DNA of 64,000 bases, from positions 9,548,001-9,612,000 of the forward strand of contig OX597823.1 in assembly GCA_951406725.2 (NCBI GenBank). The letters are read 5' to 3'. Numbering within the stretch: position 1 is the first letter of the stretch; each line of letters begins with the position of its first letter. Under the pieces are notes generated by a model, which was not told where the DNA came from, did no database searches, and saw only the letters and a program-made list of their open reading frames with translations. Position numbers and translations under genes: made by a program. This DNA is from Octopus vulgaris (Eukaryota). Positions 5,367 through 64,000 of the stretch are shown here, piece by piece.

Positions 5367-5439
5367 GGCCGCGTAGCCTAATGGATAAGGCGTCTGACTT
5401 CGAATCAGAAGATTGCGAGTTCGAGTCTCGTCGTGGTCA
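5367..5439 (+). tRNA. trnR-UCG: tRNA-Arg, anticodon TCG (gene or retroposed copy)
   Basis: 73-nt cloverleaf: acceptor GGCCGCG/CGTGGTC, D stem GCCT/AGGC, anticodon stem TCTGA/TCAGA with loop CT-TCG-AA (5400-5402), T stem GCGAG/CTCGT with TTCGAGT loop. Confidence 0.9.
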
Positions 5440-7170: not shown

Positions 7171-7722
7171 TGTCGGCCACAACAGCGGAAACCATATTGA
7201 CAATGACGGTGAAATATTTTTTTCAAATGAAAATAGCATATCAATGAAAAAAGTCGAACAAAGAATTATATAGCCGAAATAAATATATACAAAAGGAAAA
7301 AAAAAGAGTATATGCAGAGAATAATGCTGATACCTACAGGAGCATGAATAGCCGAAAATCGCACATCGCATGGTTGACATGAAGTATTTTCAAGTGAAAC
7401 TGCTATATACGTAAAAGGACAAAAATATGTTTCAAATGACAGAACACAGTCAATGAACTACAGAAAGATCAGTTCGACTTCATAGTATTAGTGTTGATAT
7501 GCGGTATGAATATCACATTGTCTGATATGGTCCTAGGGACGTTATATTTGAAAATATAATCACGACTGAGATGGCTATATTCATGAGATGGCTATATTCA
7601 CGACTGAGATGGCTATAGTCATTGTGTGAGCTTAGCAGTGTGGTTACTTCGTTAAACTGAACTCTATGTGAATTCTTCCTACCTTGAAACCACTGGCGCT
7701 CTCTCACACGCTATTTTTTGAA

Positions 7723-11012: not shown

Positions 11013-11016
<4 letters not shown>

Positions 11017-11759
11017 GGAAATAGTTTTTGAAAAAGTTTTTTTAGCTGCTATTTCTAATGAGTTCAGTATGCGGCAAAGTAATTTATTTTACTAAGCCCT
11101 TTTATATAATGTAATAATTTGAATTCGCCTTAAATGGTCCCTTTGTATACTGAATACTTGGTAAAATTGATTAATTAATTAATTTTACCCTCAATTGTTG
11201 AAATTATAATTCATCTCTCTCTATATAATGCCTCGGATTTTACCGAAAAAAGCAAAGTGTTTGCTGATTTTAACCCACGCTGGTGGAAAGGGGAGAGCAG
11301 AAATTCTTCGCTTGCATATTTGAATTTGCTGGCACTGTTAGTTTTGAGCAGATCTTCAGAAGTGATAACAAGCCGAAAGGGTATGCTCCCACTTTCAGTG
11401 TTTTCAAATCCAAACCAGGGAGTTCTGAGCTGATGATAGAAGTGTCGATTTTGACTAATCTTGAAACGTACGTTCTCAAATAACCTTTGCATTTGATTTT
11501 TTAATGTCTCTACCCCCATACTTTTGTGAGTTGAATTGAGCAAACACTATATGAGAGAGGTTTTCTTTAAGTATTGGAAATAGTTTTTGAAAAAGTTTTT
11601 TTAGCTGCTATTTCTAATGAGTTCAGTATGCGGCAAAGTAATTTATTTTACTAAGCCCTTTTATATAATGTAATAATTTGAATTCGCCTTAAATGGTCCC
11701 TTTGTATACTGAATACTTGGTAAAATTGATTAATTAATTAATTTTACCCTAAATTGTTG

Positions 11760-11763
<4 letters not shown>
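11013..11763 (+). mobile_element. Non-coding element with ~190-bp direct terminal repeats in (TA)n; Penelope pLTR/retrozyme-like
   Basis: 11016-11204 repeats at 11576-11763; hammerhead motif in between; related to 38762-40070. Confidence 0.75.
11426..11478 (+). ncRNA. Minimal type-I hammerhead ribozyme motif
   Basis: TGAG-CTGATGA-(irregular stem II)-GAAA-CGTACG-TT-CTCA; stem I TGAG/CTCA; palindromic stem III. Confidence 0.6.
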
Positions 11764-24051: not shown

Positions 24052-24105
<54 letters not shown>

Positions 24106-24237
24106 AAAATAGTGAAGTGTGAAAAAACGACAGAAGGCTTAAATGTTAAAAAATATATATATTTGTGTCAAAATGTCTGGAGAATATTGGAAAAATTTTT
24201 TTCCTTTCCTTAAAATGATATAATTTTAAAATTTTTA

Positions 24238-24277
24238 AAGAAATTACCGGTTTCGCGTGTAGCTTTTCAAATTTCTT
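24238..24277 (-). ncRNA. Minimal hammerhead motif, U3-A8 core variant
   Basis: Mirror copy of 24900-24939. Confidence 0.7.
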
Positions 24278-24428
24278 GTGACGTTATGTTTATATTGCAT
24301 GGAATTATCGTTGTTTTTATTTCCAGGAGATTTCTAAATAAGGGGAGGTAGTGAGTGATTTTTTCCGGTGTAGGGGAGATAATCGCTTAAAAATTTTTTT
24401 TTTTTTTTTTTTTTTTCCTTTTTCCTTG

Positions 24429-24660
24429 TTAATTTCTCTGTGTCAGTATGTTCGGATGGTTGAGTCTGGGTTTGTACTTTTCAATGAAGAATGTTTCCTT
24501 GTTCAGTCTCATTTGTGTTGATGATCCGAAAGCACATTGGCAAAATGGGAAGATTAAAAATTGTGGCAGTAGTTGCTTTGCGCATTTCTCAATGTGCTCA
24601 CTAAAAGGTTTCATTCTATATTCTGGGAATGCAATCTGTTATCGATGCAGTGTGCATCTG
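24429..24660 (-). pseudogene. Penelope-like GIY-YIG endonuclease C-terminal fragment
   Basis: RCTLHR*QIAFPEYRMKPFSEHIEKC...FLIFPF...RLNKETFFIEKYKPRLN matches the PLE H..H..E..I....P.LN pattern. Confidence 0.8.
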
Positions 24661-24899
24661 CAGTGTGCATCAACACAAATGAGACTGAACAAGGAAACAT
24701 TCTTCATTGAAAAGTACAAACCCAGACTCAACCATCCGAACATACTGACACAGAGAAATTAACAAGGAAAAAGGAAAAAAAAATTTTTAAGCGATTATCT
24801 CCCCTACACCGGAAAAAATCACTCACTACCTCCCCTTATTTAGAAATCTCCTGGAAATAAAAACAACGATAATTCCATGCAATATAAACATAACGTCAC

Positions 24900-24939
24900 A
24901 AGAAATTTGAAAAGCTACACGCGAAACCGGTAATTTCTT
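24900..24939 (+). ncRNA. Minimal hammerhead motif, U3-A8 core variant
   Basis: AAGAAAT-TTGAAAA-GC(TACAC)GC-GAAA-CCGG-TA-ATTTCTT: 7-bp stem I, palindromic ACCGGT stem III, GUA site. Confidence 0.7.
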
Positions 24940-25156
24940 TAAAAATTTTAAAATTATGTCATTTTAAGGAAAGGAAAAAAATTTTTCCAATATTCTCCAG
25001 ACATTTTGACACAAATATATATATTTTTTAACATTTAATCCTTCTGTCGTTTTTTCACACTTTACTATTTTCTTATATATTCACCCACGTGCTTTACCAA
25101 ACAAACTTTCTTATCTATATATATATATATATATATATATAAATATATACATATAT

Positions 25157-25667
25157 AATGTGAGGTATACTTGCCATCTCAATATGGCTAACCACTAAGG
25201 GTGGGTGTTACTGTAGTTTGTAGCCCCAGGAGATCATCGTCTCCAGCTGGCTGTAGGCACACTTTCTGTGCTATTATGGTATCTGCAAAGAGAGGTCATC
25301 CCTCTCTCGTAAACTGATACGCCCGGACTGCAGTTTCTAGGTATTGACCTGTCGTCGGCGTACGACAACTACCGGTTTTCGGCACATCTCTTCATCGAAA
25401 ACTGGTGATTGTCGTACGCCAACGACAGGTCAATACCTAGAAACTGCAGTCCGGGCGTATCACTTAGGTTGACAGGGGAGGGATGACTTCCCTTTGCAAA
25501 TACCATAAGAGCACAGAAAGTGTGCCTAAAGTCAGCTGGAGACGATGTTCTCCTGGGGCTACAAGCTACAGTAACACCCACCCATAGTGGTTAGCCATAT
25601 TGAGATGGCAAGTATACCTCACATTGTCGTGCAGTTACTGTTTGTACCTCGTTCAGAGGTTTATTAT

Positions 25668-25764: not shown

Positions 25765-26605
25765 CTAGCAGAATTGCCCGGCGTTGCTCGGGGCTGAATT
25801 GCTTGAAAGTACTGTTAATGATTGCACTGAATTATGATGATTATTCAGGCAAATATTGATATAAGTTTACGGTGGGAGATAAGGACTTAACGATCAAACG
25901 TGTGCCTTTGCATTGTTTTGGGGGAACCAAATTTCTGATGAGCATTATAGGGGCACCAACTTTAAGTTTGAGAAAGTGTGGTGGTAGTCCGGGGTGCTCA
26001 AAGGAATTGAGTACCTCTATTGGATAGTTGATGACGTCCTCTGGGTCAGGAGTTGTATCGATAGACTGATATACATAGACTTCCCCAGGAATGAGTTTTA
26101 GCTTTTCATCATTAATATGGTGAGCAGTTTTATTCCTCGGGGCCAGTATAGCCTTTTTGCCAATCCAATCCATATTCTGATAATTAGCTTCTAGATCTGG
26201 GAACACTGCATCTCTGAGATCAGAAGGCGTCTTAACAATGGTACAAATGGAATCGATGGCAATATTACCATTTTCATCCCCTGGTATTTTGCCTTCGCCA
26301 AGTGCAAGGAGGGTGTGAGGAAATGCTGCTGATGTGATATTACGTCGCATATGAGCATATTGGTGTGAAGTTTGAGAGTTACTTCCCTTTATTTAAAAAA
26401 ATATGCATTAAAATGGAAAAAAATGATTTTAAAATATTTGTAAAATCATAGACTCATCGTAGACGCGCGCTAATACCCAGAAGGACTCGATATGAATCAC
26501 GACTATAAGATATCCGGTTTTGGTTAAACTGCATCGCAAAATGTGGGAGTAGTTAGGAATCTAAATCGGAGTAGACAGACACACAACCTTTCTTTTATAT
26601 ATAAA
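25765..26605 (-). mobile_element. Internally deleted Helitron carrying a helicase fragment
   Basis: Hairpin plus CTAG|T at the left end; 5' part matches 13893-14100. Confidence 0.9.
25841..26350 (-). pseudogene. Helitron RepHel Pif1-type helicase fragment
   Basis: LLALGEG, AILAPRN, YPIEVLNS..PGLPPHFLKLKVGAPIMLIRNL..K.C.GTRL are Pif1 motifs of Helitron helicases. Confidence 0.92.
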
Positions 26606-27270: not shown

Positions 27271-27951
27271 TTTTCGTCCTAAAAAACTTTGTATGGATTG
27301 AATGGTTACCTCTATGGAAATATATACACGCACATTATACATACATGTGTGTATAGATGAATATATAAATACATTTAAATATCTATATACACATTTGGGC
27401 GATCTTTCTGTTTCTTAGAGATAACTTTAGATCTTATTTCGTCCTAAAAAAATTTGTATGGAGTGAATGGTTACCTCTATGGAAATATATATACACACGT
27501 TATACATACATGTGTGCATAGATGAATATATAAATACATTTATATATCTATATACACTTTTGGGCGATCTTTGTGCTACTTAGAGATAACTTTAGATCTT
27601 ATTTTCGTCCTAAAAAACTTTGTGCGGAGTGAATGGTTACGTCTATGGAAATATATACACGCACATTATACATACATCTGTGTATAGATGAATATATAAA
27701 TACATTTAAATATCTATATACACTTTTGGGCGATCTTTCTGCTACTTGTATATACTTTAGATCTTATATTCGTCCTAAAAAACTTTGTATGGAGTGAAAG
27801 GTTACCTCTATGGAAATATATACACACACATTATACATACATCTGTGTATAGATGAATATATAAATACATTTAAATATCTATATACACCTTTGGGCGATC
27901 TTTCTGCTACTTGGATATACTGTAGGTCTTATATTCGTCCTAAAAAACTTT
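27271..27951. repeat. Tandem repeat, ~165-bp unit, about 4.1 copies
   Basis: CGTCCTAAAAAA recurs at 27275, 27440, 27606, 27771 and 27936. Confidence 0.93.
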
Positions 27952-37981: not shown

Positions 37982-38405
37982 TTTACTCTTTTACTCTTTT
38001 ACTTGTTTCAATCATTTCACTGAAGCCATGCTGGAGCACCGCCTTTAATCGAGCAACTCGACCCCGGGACTTATTCTTTCGTAAGCCCAGTACTTACTCT
38101 ATCGGTCCCTTTTGCCGAACCGCTAAGTAACGGGGAAGTAAACACACCAGCATCGGTTGTCAAGCAATGCTAGGGGACAAACACAGACACACAAACACAC
38201 ATGCATATATACATATATATAAATATATACATACATATATACGACGGGCTTCTTTCAATTTCCGTCTACCAAATCCACTCACAAGGCTTTGGTCGGCCCG
38301 AGGCTATAGTAGAAGACAGTTGCCCAAGGTGCCACGCAGTGGGACTGAACCCGGAACCATGTGGTTGGTAGACAAGCTACTTACCACACAGCCACTCCTG
38401 CGCCT
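37982..38405 (-). mobile_element. SINE family A, full length
   Basis: Family match. Confidence 0.92.
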
Positions 38406-39050
38406 ATTGGTCATATTTGATCTTTACTTTATGGTAACTATTAAACACTCATTGTAATATAATGCTATTTTCTTTTGTCATTCTCTACTTAGGTGAACCA
38501 TACTTGTTTATCAGTGAATTGAAATCGATTTTTGTCTTGCATATGCTGGAAATATTTTATTATTTTACATTTTTCATGTAGCTTTGATGAAATATTGCTG
38601 TTATTTTTACAGAATGTAAATTCCCAGCTCTTTGCACACTTAAGGTGAAAAACTGAATTTAAATCTCGGTCGTAATTCTTCGGTTACTCTCACTTTCATA
38701 TTATAGAACGAGACTAGCCGAGAAATTTCTTACAATATGTATATATATATATATATATATATCCGTAATAATGAAGGGTGAAATTAATTAATTTGGAATA
38801 ATTATCAATTACAACAAGTAGTCTTCGGCATGTAAAAGCCTCATTCGAGGAAAATTTAAGTAATACTAAGCAATAAAGGGTTTGGCAACGAATTGCCTTA
38901 CCACATACCGAATTTAGAAATAGCAGTCAAAGAGTTATAGCTATTTCTTCTACTAAAAAGGAGATCTCAGTAAAAACAGCAATTGGAAGGCAGACACAAA
39001 CAGGTAAGAGAGAATGAATTGACGGCAATCTATCATACAATTTTAAGTTA

Positions 39051-39151
39051 TCTACGGACGTACGTTTCGAAATCAAGTTTTTAGGAAAGCATAAGAATTA
39101 AATATTAAATAATTCTATCTTACCAAGAACTTCTTTTCTCTTCAGCGTAGA
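39051..39151 (-). ncRNA. Type-I hammerhead ribozyme motif
   Basis: Mirror copy of 39783-39883. Confidence 0.82.
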
Positions 39152-39782
39152 ATACTATAATCATAAATGATTATATATTGAATTTTGAGATACTAGAAGG
39201 CATCAACTCAACTCAGTATCAGAGCGAGCTAGAATCCGCAACTAGTATCACCAAATTCAATGTGTGAATGAAAAGATTGTGTCACCAGCCCCTTCCCACC
39301 CGCGTGTAGCCAAAACAAGATGCTGTGGTCATCTACTGAGATAAAATATGGTTATCCGTAATAATGAAGGGTGAAATTAATTAATTTGGAATAATTATCA
39401 ATTACACCAAGTAGTCTTCGGCATGTAAAAGCCTCATTCGAGGAAAATTTAAGTAATACTAAGCAATAAAGGGTTTGGCAACGAATTGCCTTACCACATA
39501 CCGAATTTAGAAATAGCAGTCAAAGAGTTATAGCTATTTCTTCTACTAAAAAGGGAGATCTCAATAAAAACAGCAATTGGAAGGCAGACACAAACAGGTA
39601 AGAGACAATGAATTGACGGCAATCTATCATACAATTTTAAGTTATCTACGGACGTACGTTTCGAAATCACACATTGAATTTGGTGATACTAGTTGCAGAT
39701 TCTAGCTCGCTCTGATACTGAGTTGAGTTGATGCCTTCTAGTATCTCAAAATTCAATATATAATCATTTATGATTATAGTAT

Positions 39783-39883
39783 TCTACGCTGAAGAGAAAA
39801 GAAGTTCTTGGTAAGATAGAATTATTTAATATTTAATTCTTATGCTTTCCTAAAAACTTGATTTCGAAACGTACGTCCGTAGA
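39783..39883 (+). ncRNA. Type-I hammerhead ribozyme motif with long stem II
   Basis: TCTACG-CTGAAGA-GAAA...TTTC-GAAA-CGTACG-TC-CGTAGA: 6-bp stem I, intact core, GUC site after 39877. Confidence 0.85.
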
Positions 39884-40068
39884 TAACTTAAAATTGTATG
39901 ATAGATTGCCGTCAATTCATTCTCTCTTACCTGTTTGTGTCTGCCTTCCAATTGCTGTTTTTACTGAGACATCCCTTTTTAGTAGAAGAAATAGCTATAA
40001 CTCTTTGACTGCTATTTCTAAATTCGGTATGTGGTAAGGCAATTCGTTGCCAAACCCTTTATTGCTTA

Positions 40069-40114
<46 letters not shown>

Positions 40115-60192: not shown

Positions 60193-60860
60193 TACAATTA
60201 CAGGATCTTTTGGGGGATGTTCCTACTGTTATTTTTATTGTAGTTGTAAATAATGGACCCTATGTTCAGGAAAAACAACTCTAAGTAACTTTTGAGTGTA
60301 TTTCTATTGACGATTTTGCGCTATATACATGACTGAGGGAAGCGTTTATCTATAGAAGTTCAGGAATTTATTTTCCAGCCAAGTTCGTGGTTGTAGGGTA
60401 GGTTGTACCTTTAGATTTTCTTCTGTTTCCGTCTTTTTGGTAATATCTACATTTGGTTCAATATGTAATACTACTCTAATAACACACACACACACACCAC
60501 ACACTCACATATAAGCATATATATATATATATATATATGCTGAACTGTTGAATTGGACGGACGTCTATTTGTTTCTCTCCCAAGTCAGTAGCAAGCTACA
60601 CAGCTTCAAAACTTAACTGACCTTAAATATATATATATTTGTAACCACGTGTTTGCCTACAAACCCGTAAGTACGTTTTCATTTAACTACAAATTGTTAT
60701 ATACACCTGTTTTTCTTTTAATATCCTCAAACAACCAAATAATCAAAGACTCACACCCTTAAGAGAGAACATTTATATATATATACACTTCTTTAACTTC
60801 CAAGAAAGAATATATATATTTTCAAAAATCAAAAGGAAAACAAACAAAAGAAAAACAAAC

Positions 60861-62088
60861 ATGACTAACTTGCAGGCCTGCAACAGACGAAATTGGTCTG
60901 ATAACGAAATTGATGTTTTAATAAACACTTGGTTCTCTCTTTCCCAAACAGAAAATCTAAATGTTTTGTGTTTGAATGAGATTACCGAAAAAACATCACA
61001 AGTGGTCAACACACGATCCGTCAAACAGATTCATAGCAAACTGAAACATATCGAAGTATCTTTCAAACTGACAAAAGGCCATTATAAAAAGCTTCTTCAT
61101 ATTTTCACAGTTCAAGAACAGCAACAGCTAGAAAATCAGCAGCCACAACAACAACAACAACAGAATGAGCCACTACTGGTTCCCAGCACAATGGCTGACC
61201 CTAAAATCGGTCAAGCACAGCAACAACAACAACAGCCACAACAACAAGAACAACAACAGCCACTCCTCAACTCTAGCTTACTAGATAATTCACTAAATGC
61301 CAGTATCTTTTCACCGCTCTCACAGCAACCACCACAATTATCATCATCATCATCACCACCGCTGCCACCATCGTCTTCTATCACCAAAAATACCAACAAA
61401 AAACCAAATAAGAAACCACTGCCCTCTTCCCCCACATCACCACCTCAATACTACTGCAGTAACAAAAACTTAAAGAAACATAGGAAGCAGAATGCGCCCC
61501 CCACGGCACAAACAAGAAATCCCCAAATATGCCGCTATTCACTGCGCCAGAGACTCTGCACAAATAGTGACTGCATCTTCACGCATCTACCCGGCACTAG
61601 ACGCACTACCGGCCAAGGCCAAAGCACGCATCCCACAATAACATCAACACCACCAAATAGTAAATCGAAATTCAAAACACACAACACGGAGTCCCAAAAT
61701 CTGCCGGTATTCCCAACGTGAGAGAACATGTCTGCTGAGTGACTGTCCCTTCACTCATCTTCCAGGGACCCGACGCACAAACAGAAACGGGGCTTCAAGC
61801 CAACACACAAACCTGAATAACAATAAAAATAGAAACACACCATGCTGCAGTAATGCTGGTCCAGTCTTTTCAGGAAGACACAAAAACAACAACAACAAAA
61901 GTGGAAACTACAACCCTATCCAACAGTACAACCACACCTCCAGCCAAAAACTGCTCCCTAAGCAGGAAAATTCTTTTTTAGCCATGTTGAACATGGCAAA
62001 AGAGATACATAAAAACATTCTAGCCATCACTCAACCCCATCCTATGCTATTACCCCAGTGCACCAATTCCCCACATTGCTGCCACTAA
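60861..62088 (+). pseudogene. LINE ORF1: Myb/SANT-like N-terminus, Q/S/P-rich linker, two CCCH fingers (one frameshift)
   Basis: RRNWSDNEIDVLINTW; ICRYSLRQRLCTNSDCIFTHLPGTRRT, then in the next frame from 61699 ICRYSQRERTCLLSDCPFTHLPGTRRT, open to TAA at 62088. Confidence 0.75.
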
Positions 62089-64000
62089 CACACACAAAAA
62101 CTCCAAGCCACCTGCACCAGTCAAAACCAGCCACTACACTAACCTCCACATTCCTACTCAATGCACAAGGTGTCAGCCCTTCCATCAATGCACAAAAATG
62201 GAAGGTCCAATTCATTGAAGACTGGGTTGGTAACCATTCACACCACATCTCTTTCTTCATTCTCACTGAGACCCACCTTGACAACTCCCACTTGGAAGCC
62301 GAAGTGAGAATGAAGAATTTCACAACCATCCGCGCGGATCGTATCGGCAGGAGGAAGGGTGGAACTGCCATTTTCCTGCATGATTCATTTACGGCAGATG
62401 GAAATAGTATATTCTCCAACGGCTACTGTGAATCAGTCACCGTGCACAACAAAGCCAATGACCTGACAGTAATTGGGCTCTATAGGCCGCCCCAAACACC
62501 CATACTGTGCTTTAAAGAATGCCTCAACAGCATTAAGTGCTTTATTCGACAGTGCCATTCTAGCAACATACTCATGATAGGAGACTTCAATCTACCCTGT
62601 GTTGACTGGACTACAAACTGTTTGAAACCAAGCACTCCCGCCTCAACCGCTGACAAAGAAGCAGCAGAGTCACTTTTCGACTTTACGAATGAGTTTTTCT
62701 TGTCTCAACTTGTCCTTGCACCAACAAGACATCAGAACATTTTGGACCTAGTGTTTAGTAACCACACTAACACTATACATAACGTAACAGTGGAAAAAAC
62801 CCTTCTTTCAGACCATGACATGGTTCTCTGTAACATGAAATTCCACCAGCTGAAAGCTAATCCTAGTGACCTCCCTCCAGCCCACCCATTTGACAACATG
62901 GATCTCCATAATGCCAACTGGGATGCAATCAGGAACGAGCTATCACATGTTGACTGGTCCTTTACACATACACACATCTCCACCAACCATAAAACATCTT
63001 GGCAGATCTTTGTAGACACCGTCACAGACATATGTGCAAAACACTCCCCACCAAGACCTGTGAACAAAAAGTGCAGAATCCCCCAAAACAGAAAAACCAT
63101 TATCAGAAAAAGAAAAAGAACAAACAAAAAAATTAACAAACTAAAGTACTGCCAACAGCAACACACACATTCGACGGCTATCGCACTGCTTGAATACAAA
63201 AAATAGAACCTCCAACAATGCATGAAGACCCTCATCAATAACCAAAGATCAGCTGAGGAGAAGTGGGCCATTGAAAAAATCAAACTCAACCCCAAAGTGT
63301 TCTTTTCATTTGCGAGGAAACGCAGGGTCACTGTCTCCACTGTTGGCCCTCTAATTGACGAAACTGGCACTCTCCAAGATAATGCCAAATCCATGGCCGA
63401 GATACTGCAGAAACAATACTGCTCTGTTTTCAGCAATCCTGATATGGCCGATCTGGGCTGTATCAGTGATGTCAACCCCCAACACACTATATCGGACATA
63501 ACGTTTAGTGCCACTGATGTCTTAGCGGCGATAAACGAAATAAAACACAATTCAGCAGTAGGCCCCGATAGGTTCCCTGCTTGTGTCCTGAAGGTGTGTC
63601 GACACCAACTTGCATCTCCCCTTGCTAATCTGTGGAGAAACTCACTGGATGCTGGCTATATTCCAAAAACCTTCTGTCCCAGTCTGTTGTCCCAGTTTTC
63701 AAAAAGGGAAACAAGTCCCTTGCAGTGAACTACCGTCCGATCTCACTCACCTCTCATATCATCAAGGTATTTGAGAGGGTGGTGAGATCTCGAATAACCC
63801 AATTTCTGGAAAGCAACAGACGGCTGATCTCCAACCAACATGGGTTCCGTAATGGAAGGGACTGCCTAACGCAGCTCCTGCATCACTTTGATGACATTTT
63901 GAGAGCTTTGGGAGAGGGCTCCAACACCGATGTCATCTACCTTGATTTCAGTAAGGCCTTCGACAGGGTCGATCACAAGATCCTATTGAAAAAACTATCC
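62058..64000 (+). pseudogene. LINE ORF2: apurinic-like endonuclease plus reverse transcriptase
   Basis: NAQG, TETHL, GGTAIF, LYRPP, GDFNLP, LDLVF, SDH; stop at 63204-63206; frameshift in the A run near 63665; then VVPVFKKG, NYRPISLTS, QHGFR, YLDFSKAFDRVDH. Confidence 0.95.

Follow-up and report, generated by a model that had tools for sequence, protein, structure and literature searches.

A non-coding hammerhead element with the insertion anatomy of Penelope-like elements in the Octopus vulgaris genome

At positions 38763-40072 of the window (the whole 64-kb stretch of Octopus vulgaris DNA that was analysed), a 593-nt repeat is present as 1.53 direct units followed by a 406-nt inverted arm, set inside (TA)n and carrying hammerhead ribozyme motifs. 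This raises the question of what kind of element leaves such a structure, and whether RNA cut out by the hammerhead is its template. As described below, the locus is one copy of a young, dispersed, non-coding and near-identical family with hundreds of members. We are nearly certain that this family is a non-autonomous hammerhead element of the Penelope-like element (PLE) type, and we think it probable, with clearly less assurance, that a PLE enzyme acting in trans copies a unit-length and probably circular RNA.

Anatomy of the locus and its hammerhead

Unit positions are numbered on the hammerhead-sense strand, with q1 at 39355 (minus strand) and q593 at 38763. The locus contains the following features:

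38740..38762, no strand: left (TA)n target tract, the last 3 nt of which are common to the element end
38763..39355, minus strand: full 593-nt unit; its outer end is the distal 3' end, E2
38763..38862, minus strand: the ~100-nt 'tail' (q494-593), absent from the outer end of the inverted arm
39051..39151, minus strand: complete type I hammerhead, predicted cut after C39057
39356..39669, minus strand: 5'-truncated second unit of 314 nt (q281-593), by alignment to the unit
39645..39669, minus strand: 3' half only of a hammerhead (GAAA, palindrome, GUC, 3' strand of stem I), site after C39651
39667..39669, no strand: TCA microhomology at the head-to-head joint of the arms (q281 to q89)
39667..40072, plus strand: inverted arm (q89-493); its outer end is the proximal 3' end, E1
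39783..39883, plus strand: complete type I hammerhead, predicted cut after C39877
39953..40072, plus strand: part of the structured region kept in all sister families, upstream of E1, and a candidate reverse-transcriptase binding site
40070..40101, no strand: right (TA)n target tract

An earlier note on this DNA had described a 593-bp unit as a tandem plus inversion, and the full unit at 38763-39355, the truncated unit and the inverted arm were all found. Its other readings of the anatomy also agree with our measurements: about 1.5 direct units (1.53, or 593 + 314 nt), an inverted arm of about 400 bp (406 nt, 39667-40072), almost identical copies (98-99% between the direct units and 99% for the inverted arm), (TA)n tracts on both sides, and a TCA microhomology within stem II at 39667-39669, which is an overlap of exactly 3 nt at q281-283. 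The note had seen no ORF either; since the longest stop-to-stop frame within the element is only 66 aa, we reject a coding role. GC content is 0.35 across 38001-40000. Because the target is itself (TA)n, a target-site duplication is not readable at this locus. That the locus is an assembly artefact is unlikely because the same architecture is present at 49 of 92 loci of the family. The copies at the locus carry 6 private substitutions per 1310 nt and one length variant, and the insertion is therefore young but not among the youngest; the recent origin that had been proposed for it is supported for the family as a whole.

The hammerhead (q205-305) combines a stem I of 6 bp with CUGAAGA, a stem II domain of 70 nt, GAAA, ACGUACGU and the triplet GUC, and cleavage is predicted to follow C299 (q299). 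It has all parts of a type I core, namely CUGANGA and GAAA, an NUH triplet, stems I-III and the G10.1-C11.1 pair. A permissive descriptor allowing a stem II of up to ~140 nt gave two hits on both strands of the 64-kb window, both of them in this element, and so recovered the intact GUC hammerhead with canonical core, 6-bp stem I, palindromic stem III and ~70-nt stem II that had been read by the earlier note. Stem III is of the 2-bp form with a palindromic loop, and for its self-dimer a folding energy of -11.2 kcal/mol was obtained. By itself, the 116-nt hammerhead region is no more stably folded than shuffled sequences (z -1.2). Rfam searches returned no hammerhead at gathering score across the window, and none at E<=10 over the locus and an older relative described below. 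The long stem II is the likely cause of this miss, and an Rfam match is in any case a match to a library and not a defining property of a hammerhead ribozyme.

Within the tandem, the hammerhead-sense sequence is on the minus strand, which carries one whole hammerhead (39151-39051) and a second of which only the 3' half is present (39669-39645), lacking CUGAAGA. The spacing of the cut sites in the tandem is 594 nt rather than the 593 nt given previously. When the whole locus is folded, on either strand, the CUGAAGA of the complete hammerhead pairs into the inverted-repeat duplex. A tandem without a second core and a predicted fold that buries the hammerhead in duplex make this locus a poor test case; it had been put forward as the best one, but its tandem has a single whole hammerhead that a read-through RNA is predicted to hide. 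We likewise predict that new circles would seldom arise from it. The preprint 10.64898/2026.07.22.740005 calls a copy 'active' if whole hammerheads are present in two consecutive units, an arrangement absent here and present at other family loci. At least two intact hammerheads are found in 43 arms among the 92 loci, and 12 of these arms are in non-inverted loci (L032, L036, L060 and L063, for example), which are better tests than this locus. Circle-junction reads would not be decisive, because the junction of a circle has the same sequence as the genomic tandem junction.

A dispersed family with two 3' ends

We searched the genome (2.8 Gb, 227 contigs) with a 27-mer located just past the cut site, which gave 499 exact matches genome-wide against 0 for the reversed control, and with the unit itself, which gave 171 matches in 40 scored of 2073 candidates. 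From the 27-mer matches we estimate that the genome has roughly 300 loci of the family. The 92 loci analysed are the 40 best-scoring ones and 52 from the first 100 of the 499 pattern matches, with duplicates dropped; very short copies are missing from this second set because the 27-mer was required, and the set is unbiased for score. BLAST pieces of <86% identity were dropped (<89% in one analysis of private substitutions), as were one stray older piece of L068, L292 (a duplicate of L293 with an N gap) and two of three segmental-duplicate copies in L270/L271. Substitution counts exclude q392-398 and the ends of pieces.

Pieces of nearly full length match the window unit at 95-100% identity (median 98.5%, n = 111), and (TA)4 is present within 40 nt on both flanks at 83 of the 92 loci. 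No ORF with reverse transcriptase (RT) and GIY-YIG is attached at any of the 92 loci, and the element contains no ORF; for this reason we do not file the family as an autonomous PLE. It does consist of tandem non-coding units that each have a type I hammerhead, as required of a non-LTR retrozyme.

Two end sites are used by the 141 arms, E1 (q485-503) and E2 (q586-593), which are ~100 nt apart, and the 5' ends of the arms are scattered. Head-to-head inversion is found at 49 of the 92 loci. Forty of these combine an E1 end with an E2 end, none combines E1 with E1 or E2 with E2, and nine have an end elsewhere, while the 43 non-inverted loci end at E1 (31), at E2 (8) or elsewhere (4). With one E1 and one E2 end, one outer end necessarily has ~100 nt that are missing from the other. 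This one-sided tail occurs at 40 of the 49 inverted loci, and is ~100 nt long as compared with 30-40 in PLEs. Four sister families show the same two ends.

The lengths of the two arms are uncorrelated (rho 0.25, p 0.13, n = 40), and either may be the longer (the E1 arm in 20 and the E2 arm in 15 of 40). Their inner ends are a median of 424 nt apart in register, and within 50 nt of each other in only 3 of 40 cases. The joint between the arms could be resolved exactly at 33 of the 49 inverted loci, with 16 overlaps of 1-4 nt, 4 blunt junctions and 13 gapped ones, some of which may reflect nearby substitutions. The two arms thus look like two separate cDNAs, and two separately primed cDNAs joined head to head fit better than the template switch at TCA by which the inversion had been explained. 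At the same time, haplotypes are common to both arms for 103 of 107 multi-piece variants (40 loci). We infer from the strict pairing of E1 with E2 and from this common haplotype that one ribonucleoprotein with two coupled starts made both arms. The combination of tandem, inversion, one-sided tail and (TA)n is the signature of a PLE insertion, which the earlier note had missed.

The RNA unit and its use as a template

The sense unit folds with a z-score of -5.8 as a linear and -5.1 as a circular molecule, into a rod-like form in which the hammerhead stays exposed. Of 63 inherited variants, 13 break predicted pairs where 21 are expected with the spectrum kept (P 0.008), and none of the 63 falls in the hammerhead core or stem I. 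This is contrasted by private singletons, which break pairs as often as chance predicts (54 of 116, 56 expected). An earlier core-versus-singleton test on 40 loci was not significant (1/55 vs 10/103, p 0.10). Inherited variants at family A loci are mostly A>G and T>C (37/63), unlike private singletons (27/116), an excess that could stem from copying errors, A-to-I editing or selection for G-U pairs.

Sister families with the same 3' region number four in the genome and one in the window, with periods of 510 to 603 bp. Among families A-F, stem I differs yet still pairs and the core is kept; the loop palindrome of the sister hammerheads is GUAC/GCGC, their first stem II pairs compensate, and stem II ranges from 26 to 70 nt over the families. 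Between families A and B, 6-11 predicted pairs are compensated and 1-2 are broken on both sides. These compensatory changes argue for selection on RNA structure. Judged from such sequence patterns, the RNA unit and its hammerhead are under selection, and for the hammerhead both the variant pattern and the covariation support it at the level of the family.

The relative in the window (11016-11763) is older. Its 1.3 units have a period of 559 bp and lie between (TA)n tracts; in its hammerhead, stem II is 26 nt long, the palindrome is again ACGUACGU and the triplet is GUU. We also observed unrelated non-coding hammerhead elements, with stem II domains of 59 nt (L078:1-600), 61 nt (L108:850-1500), 97 nt (L135:400-1200) and 43 nt (L185:1800-2300). 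The stem III loops of these four are palindromic or nearly so, and the L135 element is a tandem with a 562-bp period.

As to what is copied, 79 of the 141 arms are longer than one unit and 23 are longer than two, the longest reaching 3510 nt. Variants fixed over at least two unit ranks amount to 271 locus-variant cases (13 private to one locus) compared with 13 partial ones. Because inherited variants occupy every unit, each insertion likely derives from one unit-length template that was read repeatedly. No change at the cut site is seen in 207 of 209 pieces that cross it. Three arms start exactly at G301, 1 nt past the predicted 5' end of the cut RNA (P 0.002 for one position, 0.04 for three positions), which is suggestive only.

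A C/T run at q394-401 (window 38955-38962 and its copies) is alike in 42 of 94 neighbouring units, with a fraction of ~0.38 expected by chance from the state frequencies. Since the run differs between neighbours at chance level, the arrays are not explained by DNA duplication after insertion. Of twelve other base runs, none differs in more than 4 of 147-241 pieces, and a thirteenth (q380-384) has a subfamily insertion; the C/T run is likely a slippage hot spot of the reverse transcriptase. Its same-rank concordance (18/42 vs 27/72, p 0.69) gives no discrimination between circular and linear templates because the run is saturated. Two of the partial variants, at L047 and L276, occupy the same rank in each arm, the pattern expected from a linear multimer template, and 7 of the 13 cases come from L038, which is a mosaic. 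L038 (G000:C5:14399500-14408900) has the longest array, a mosaic of subfamily alleles with many single-base gaps that reflects either template switching between molecules or local polishing error. One DNA-level unit duplication was seen, at L063.

A ligated circle is the simplest explanation of unit-length, scarless and repeated reading, and in our view the most likely one. The unit-length RNA that had been proposed as an intermediate is thus likely for the family, given the fixed variants (271 vs 13). We propose that a tandem copy elsewhere would be transcribed, and that its paired hammerheads would release a 593-nt monomer to be ligated into a circle. A PLE protein would cut both strands of a (TA)n tract, the target that we observe, and the two DNA ends would prime two coupled reverse transcriptions that start within the RNA at E1 (q487-502) and E2 (q588-593), where the arms are indeed seen to end. 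Each enzyme would circle the template for a variable distance, with observed arm lengths of up to ~6 units, and the two cDNAs would then be joined 5' to 5', often via the 1-4 nt of microhomology seen at the junctions. Where only one cDNA is kept a plain partial tandem would result, and the locus studied here would be a two-armed product. In its most specific form this amounts to double rolling-circle retrotransposition, with an enzyme pair on one hammerhead-made circle, two starts 100 nt apart and independent rolling, an idea that we advance tentatively and to which we give somewhat less weight than to its negation.

The closest competitor keeps the same non-autonomous PLE-type element and replaces the circle by a linear template, either an uncut multimer or a molecule on which the enzyme jumps repeatedly, so that the hammerhead only trims the transcript; on reaching the 5' end, the enzyme could jump to the homologous repeat if the transcript has 1.x units, or to the 3' end if it is a cut monomer. 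This reading agrees with the mosaic at L038 and with the variants that L047 and L276 carry at one rank in the two arms. It is also in line with the three arms whose start coincides with the cut site, as expected if the enzyme ran off a linear 5' end, and with the use of uncut RNA as the main in vitro substrate of an anole PLE in the available text of PMC11167929. A linear multimer, however, cannot spread a new variant to all units, and 13 private variants are fixed as opposed to 2 rank-matched partial ones. End-to-end jumps would be expected to leave scars, of which 207 of 209 crossings are free, whereas homology-guided jumping on one linear molecule would leave the same pattern as we observe. 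On balance we hold a linear template to be unlikely, though the least so of the alternatives.

Self-priming, in which a single cDNA folds back at a microhomology and copies itself into the inverted arm, and to which the template switch of the earlier note corresponds, was proposed for Penelope inversions in the portion of PMC3846280 available, and would account both for the 1-4 nt overlaps at 16 of the 33 resolved junctions (of 49 inverted loci) and for the haplotypes common to both arms (103/107 multi-piece variants). The fold-back loops would nevertheless have to be hundreds of nt long (median 424), either arm may be the longer (E1 20, E2 15 of 40), and in 40 of 40 classed cases copying would need to halt precisely at the second of the two fixed ends. 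In addition, 70 singletons are unshared by the same-rank unit of the other arm, although these may postdate insertion. We regard fold-back as improbable. More improbable still, and already largely refuted, is a DNA satellite or minisatellite that was spread and amplified by recombination at the DNA level, or an assembly artefact, the hammerhead then being a relic or a product of chance. The DNA-level unit duplication at L063 is of this kind, and tandems and inversions are hard to assemble; yet the arrays are short, lie on many contigs and combine variable 5' truncation with two fixed 3' ends, the C/T run differs between neighbours at chance level, and the compensatory changes indicate selection on RNA structure.

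Relation to Penelope-like elements and retrozymes

If the family is mobilised in trans, an autonomous PLE might share its repeat. Among 50 GIY-YIG loci, 9 further regions and 32 loci of a second PLE family, for which 150 of 6136 and 150 of 4509 candidates were scored, no autonomous PLE had a repeat matching that of the family. A GIY-YIG scan with a 781-aa family gave no shared repeat, and nor did the flanks of the sister families. The same outcome was obtained when PLE loci were compared with a nucleotide profile built from the conserved 3' region, and with a remote protein profile over 309 sequences. Apparent links to a partner at L117, L077, L096, L226, L045 and L063 were rejected as separate insertions near or in the same (TA)n tracts.

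These searches brought up other elements. Loci L100-L113 (for example G000:C16:20834800-20842000) belong to a young autonomous PLE family with an intact 781-aa RT and GIY-YIG frame, an upstream overlapping frame, ends in (TA)n and, by eye, a putative U3-A8 core hammerhead variant near the 3' end. A second abundant and young PLE-like family (L329-L340, for example G000:C8:57972500-57982400) has open frames of up to 1214 aa in which RT and GIY-YIG motifs were read by eye, and has no repeat common to the 593-nt element. About ten divergent PLE fragments are also present in the genome, with no sequence common to the unit. Within the window, a 5'-truncated PLE end (GIY-YIG C-terminus) forms a head-to-head inverted pair in (TA)n at 24104-25112, with a ~40-nt tail on one side that corresponds to the canonical short-tail form. 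The window further holds a tRNA with a UCG anticodon (5367-5439, above the Rfam gathering score), a vault RNA (7624-7713, Rfam 42.7 bits, cut-off 34), a 470-bp palindromic element that is 89% self-complementary (25157-25625) and a 165-bp tandem (27272-27951). We take the frame at 25841-26392 to be helicase-like, and those at 60687-63728 presumably resemble LINE ORF1, endonuclease and RT.

Craig et al. (PMC8557442), in the sections available, describe PLEs that form partial tandems, have an inverted copy truncated at its 5' end and a tail of 30-40 bp at one end, and target (TA)n, and the accessible text of Arkhipova et al. (PMC3846280) gives the same anatomy. Frangieh et al. (PMC11167929) report, in the text at hand, that in vitro a PLE protein, predicted to be a dimer, cleaves both strands of AT-rich DNA and extends them, starting from two positions inside the RNA that delimit the tail; for the one PLE tested in vitro, hammerhead cleavage was dispensable and uncut RNA was the main template. 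As far as these papers and PMC4209133 describe EN+ PLEs (Penelope/Poseidon, Neptune, Naiad), our family resembles them in its partial tandems, 5' truncation, inverted 5'-truncated copy, tail at one end, microsatellite targets and hammerhead in the repeat. It differs from them in having no ORF, a tail of ~100 nt rather than 30-40 nt, arms of up to 6 whole units, and a canonical-core hammerhead with a long stem II where theirs are minimal. Non-autonomous PLEs are already known (PMC8557442; PMC9977147, in the parts available). By the same accounts, most Chlamys PLEs, of which MRC1 is a non-autonomous example, are without a canonical hammerhead, which this family has, and they generally share 3' sequence with an autonomous partner, whereas none was found here in the PLE families sampled.

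With metazoan non-LTR retrozymes, as presented in the accessible part of PMC7229834, the family shares non-coding tandems with one type I hammerhead per unit, a stem III that is short and closed by a palindromic tetraloop, a low GC content and a monomer with a high degree of self-pairing. In contrast to them, its unit is 593 nt (170-400 nt in PMC7229834 and 51-972 bp in 10.64898/2026.07.22.740005) and it has a 70-nt stem II in place of a 4-bp hairpin; dispersed insertions, head-to-head inversion, a one-sided tail and a (TA)n target also set it apart from retrozymes as described in the text available. A circRNA intermediate and mobilisation by PLEs have already been proposed for metazoan retrozymes (Cervera and de la Pena 2020, PMC7229834; Li et al., 10.64898/2026.07.22.740005), and a circular template for PLE tandems was suggested in PMC4209133 and PMC7229834, in the text available of each without insertion-level evidence. 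The portion of the preprint 10.64898/2026.07.22.740005 at hand reports in vitro cleavage for 1 of 9 Xenopus retrozyme dimers; of 57 Xenopus families, 24 matched 22 elements, 21 of which are PLEs, and that portion lists no mollusc among the species sampled. Unlike the Xenopus retrozymes with matched PLEs, the octopus family has no homologous autonomous repeat among the PLE families sampled. A repeat annotation of Octopus vulgaris counts 31 recently active Penelope-like families, with ribozymes unmentioned in the available part of that paper (PMC13282606).

Searches of the open-licence literature returned no description of this family, and bioRxiv supplements could list related elements. As far as those searches show, novelty lies in the family with its relatives, the stem II of 70 nt, the tail of 100 nt, the one-of-each end rule and the use of insertion-wide variant fixation as genomic evidence for a single-unit template.

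Our analysis suggests no host function for the element. How PLE tandems and inversions form, and what the hammerhead does, are stated to be open questions in the accessible text of PMC8557442 and PMC11167929. The family bears on them with insertion-level evidence, namely the strict one-of-each end rule and the fixation of variants over whole insertions, and it supplies small natural templates of 593 nt, with two mapped start sites and intact tandem loci, on which circular and linear RNA can be compared. The presence of at least six related families, and of several unrelated ones whose stem II domains measure 42-97 nt, suggests that descriptor and Rfam searches undercount animal retrozymes. If double rolling proves true, a single mechanism would explain the tandems, head-to-head inversions and one-sided tail of PLEs, and it would point to a class of long-stem-II retrozymes that current models overlook.
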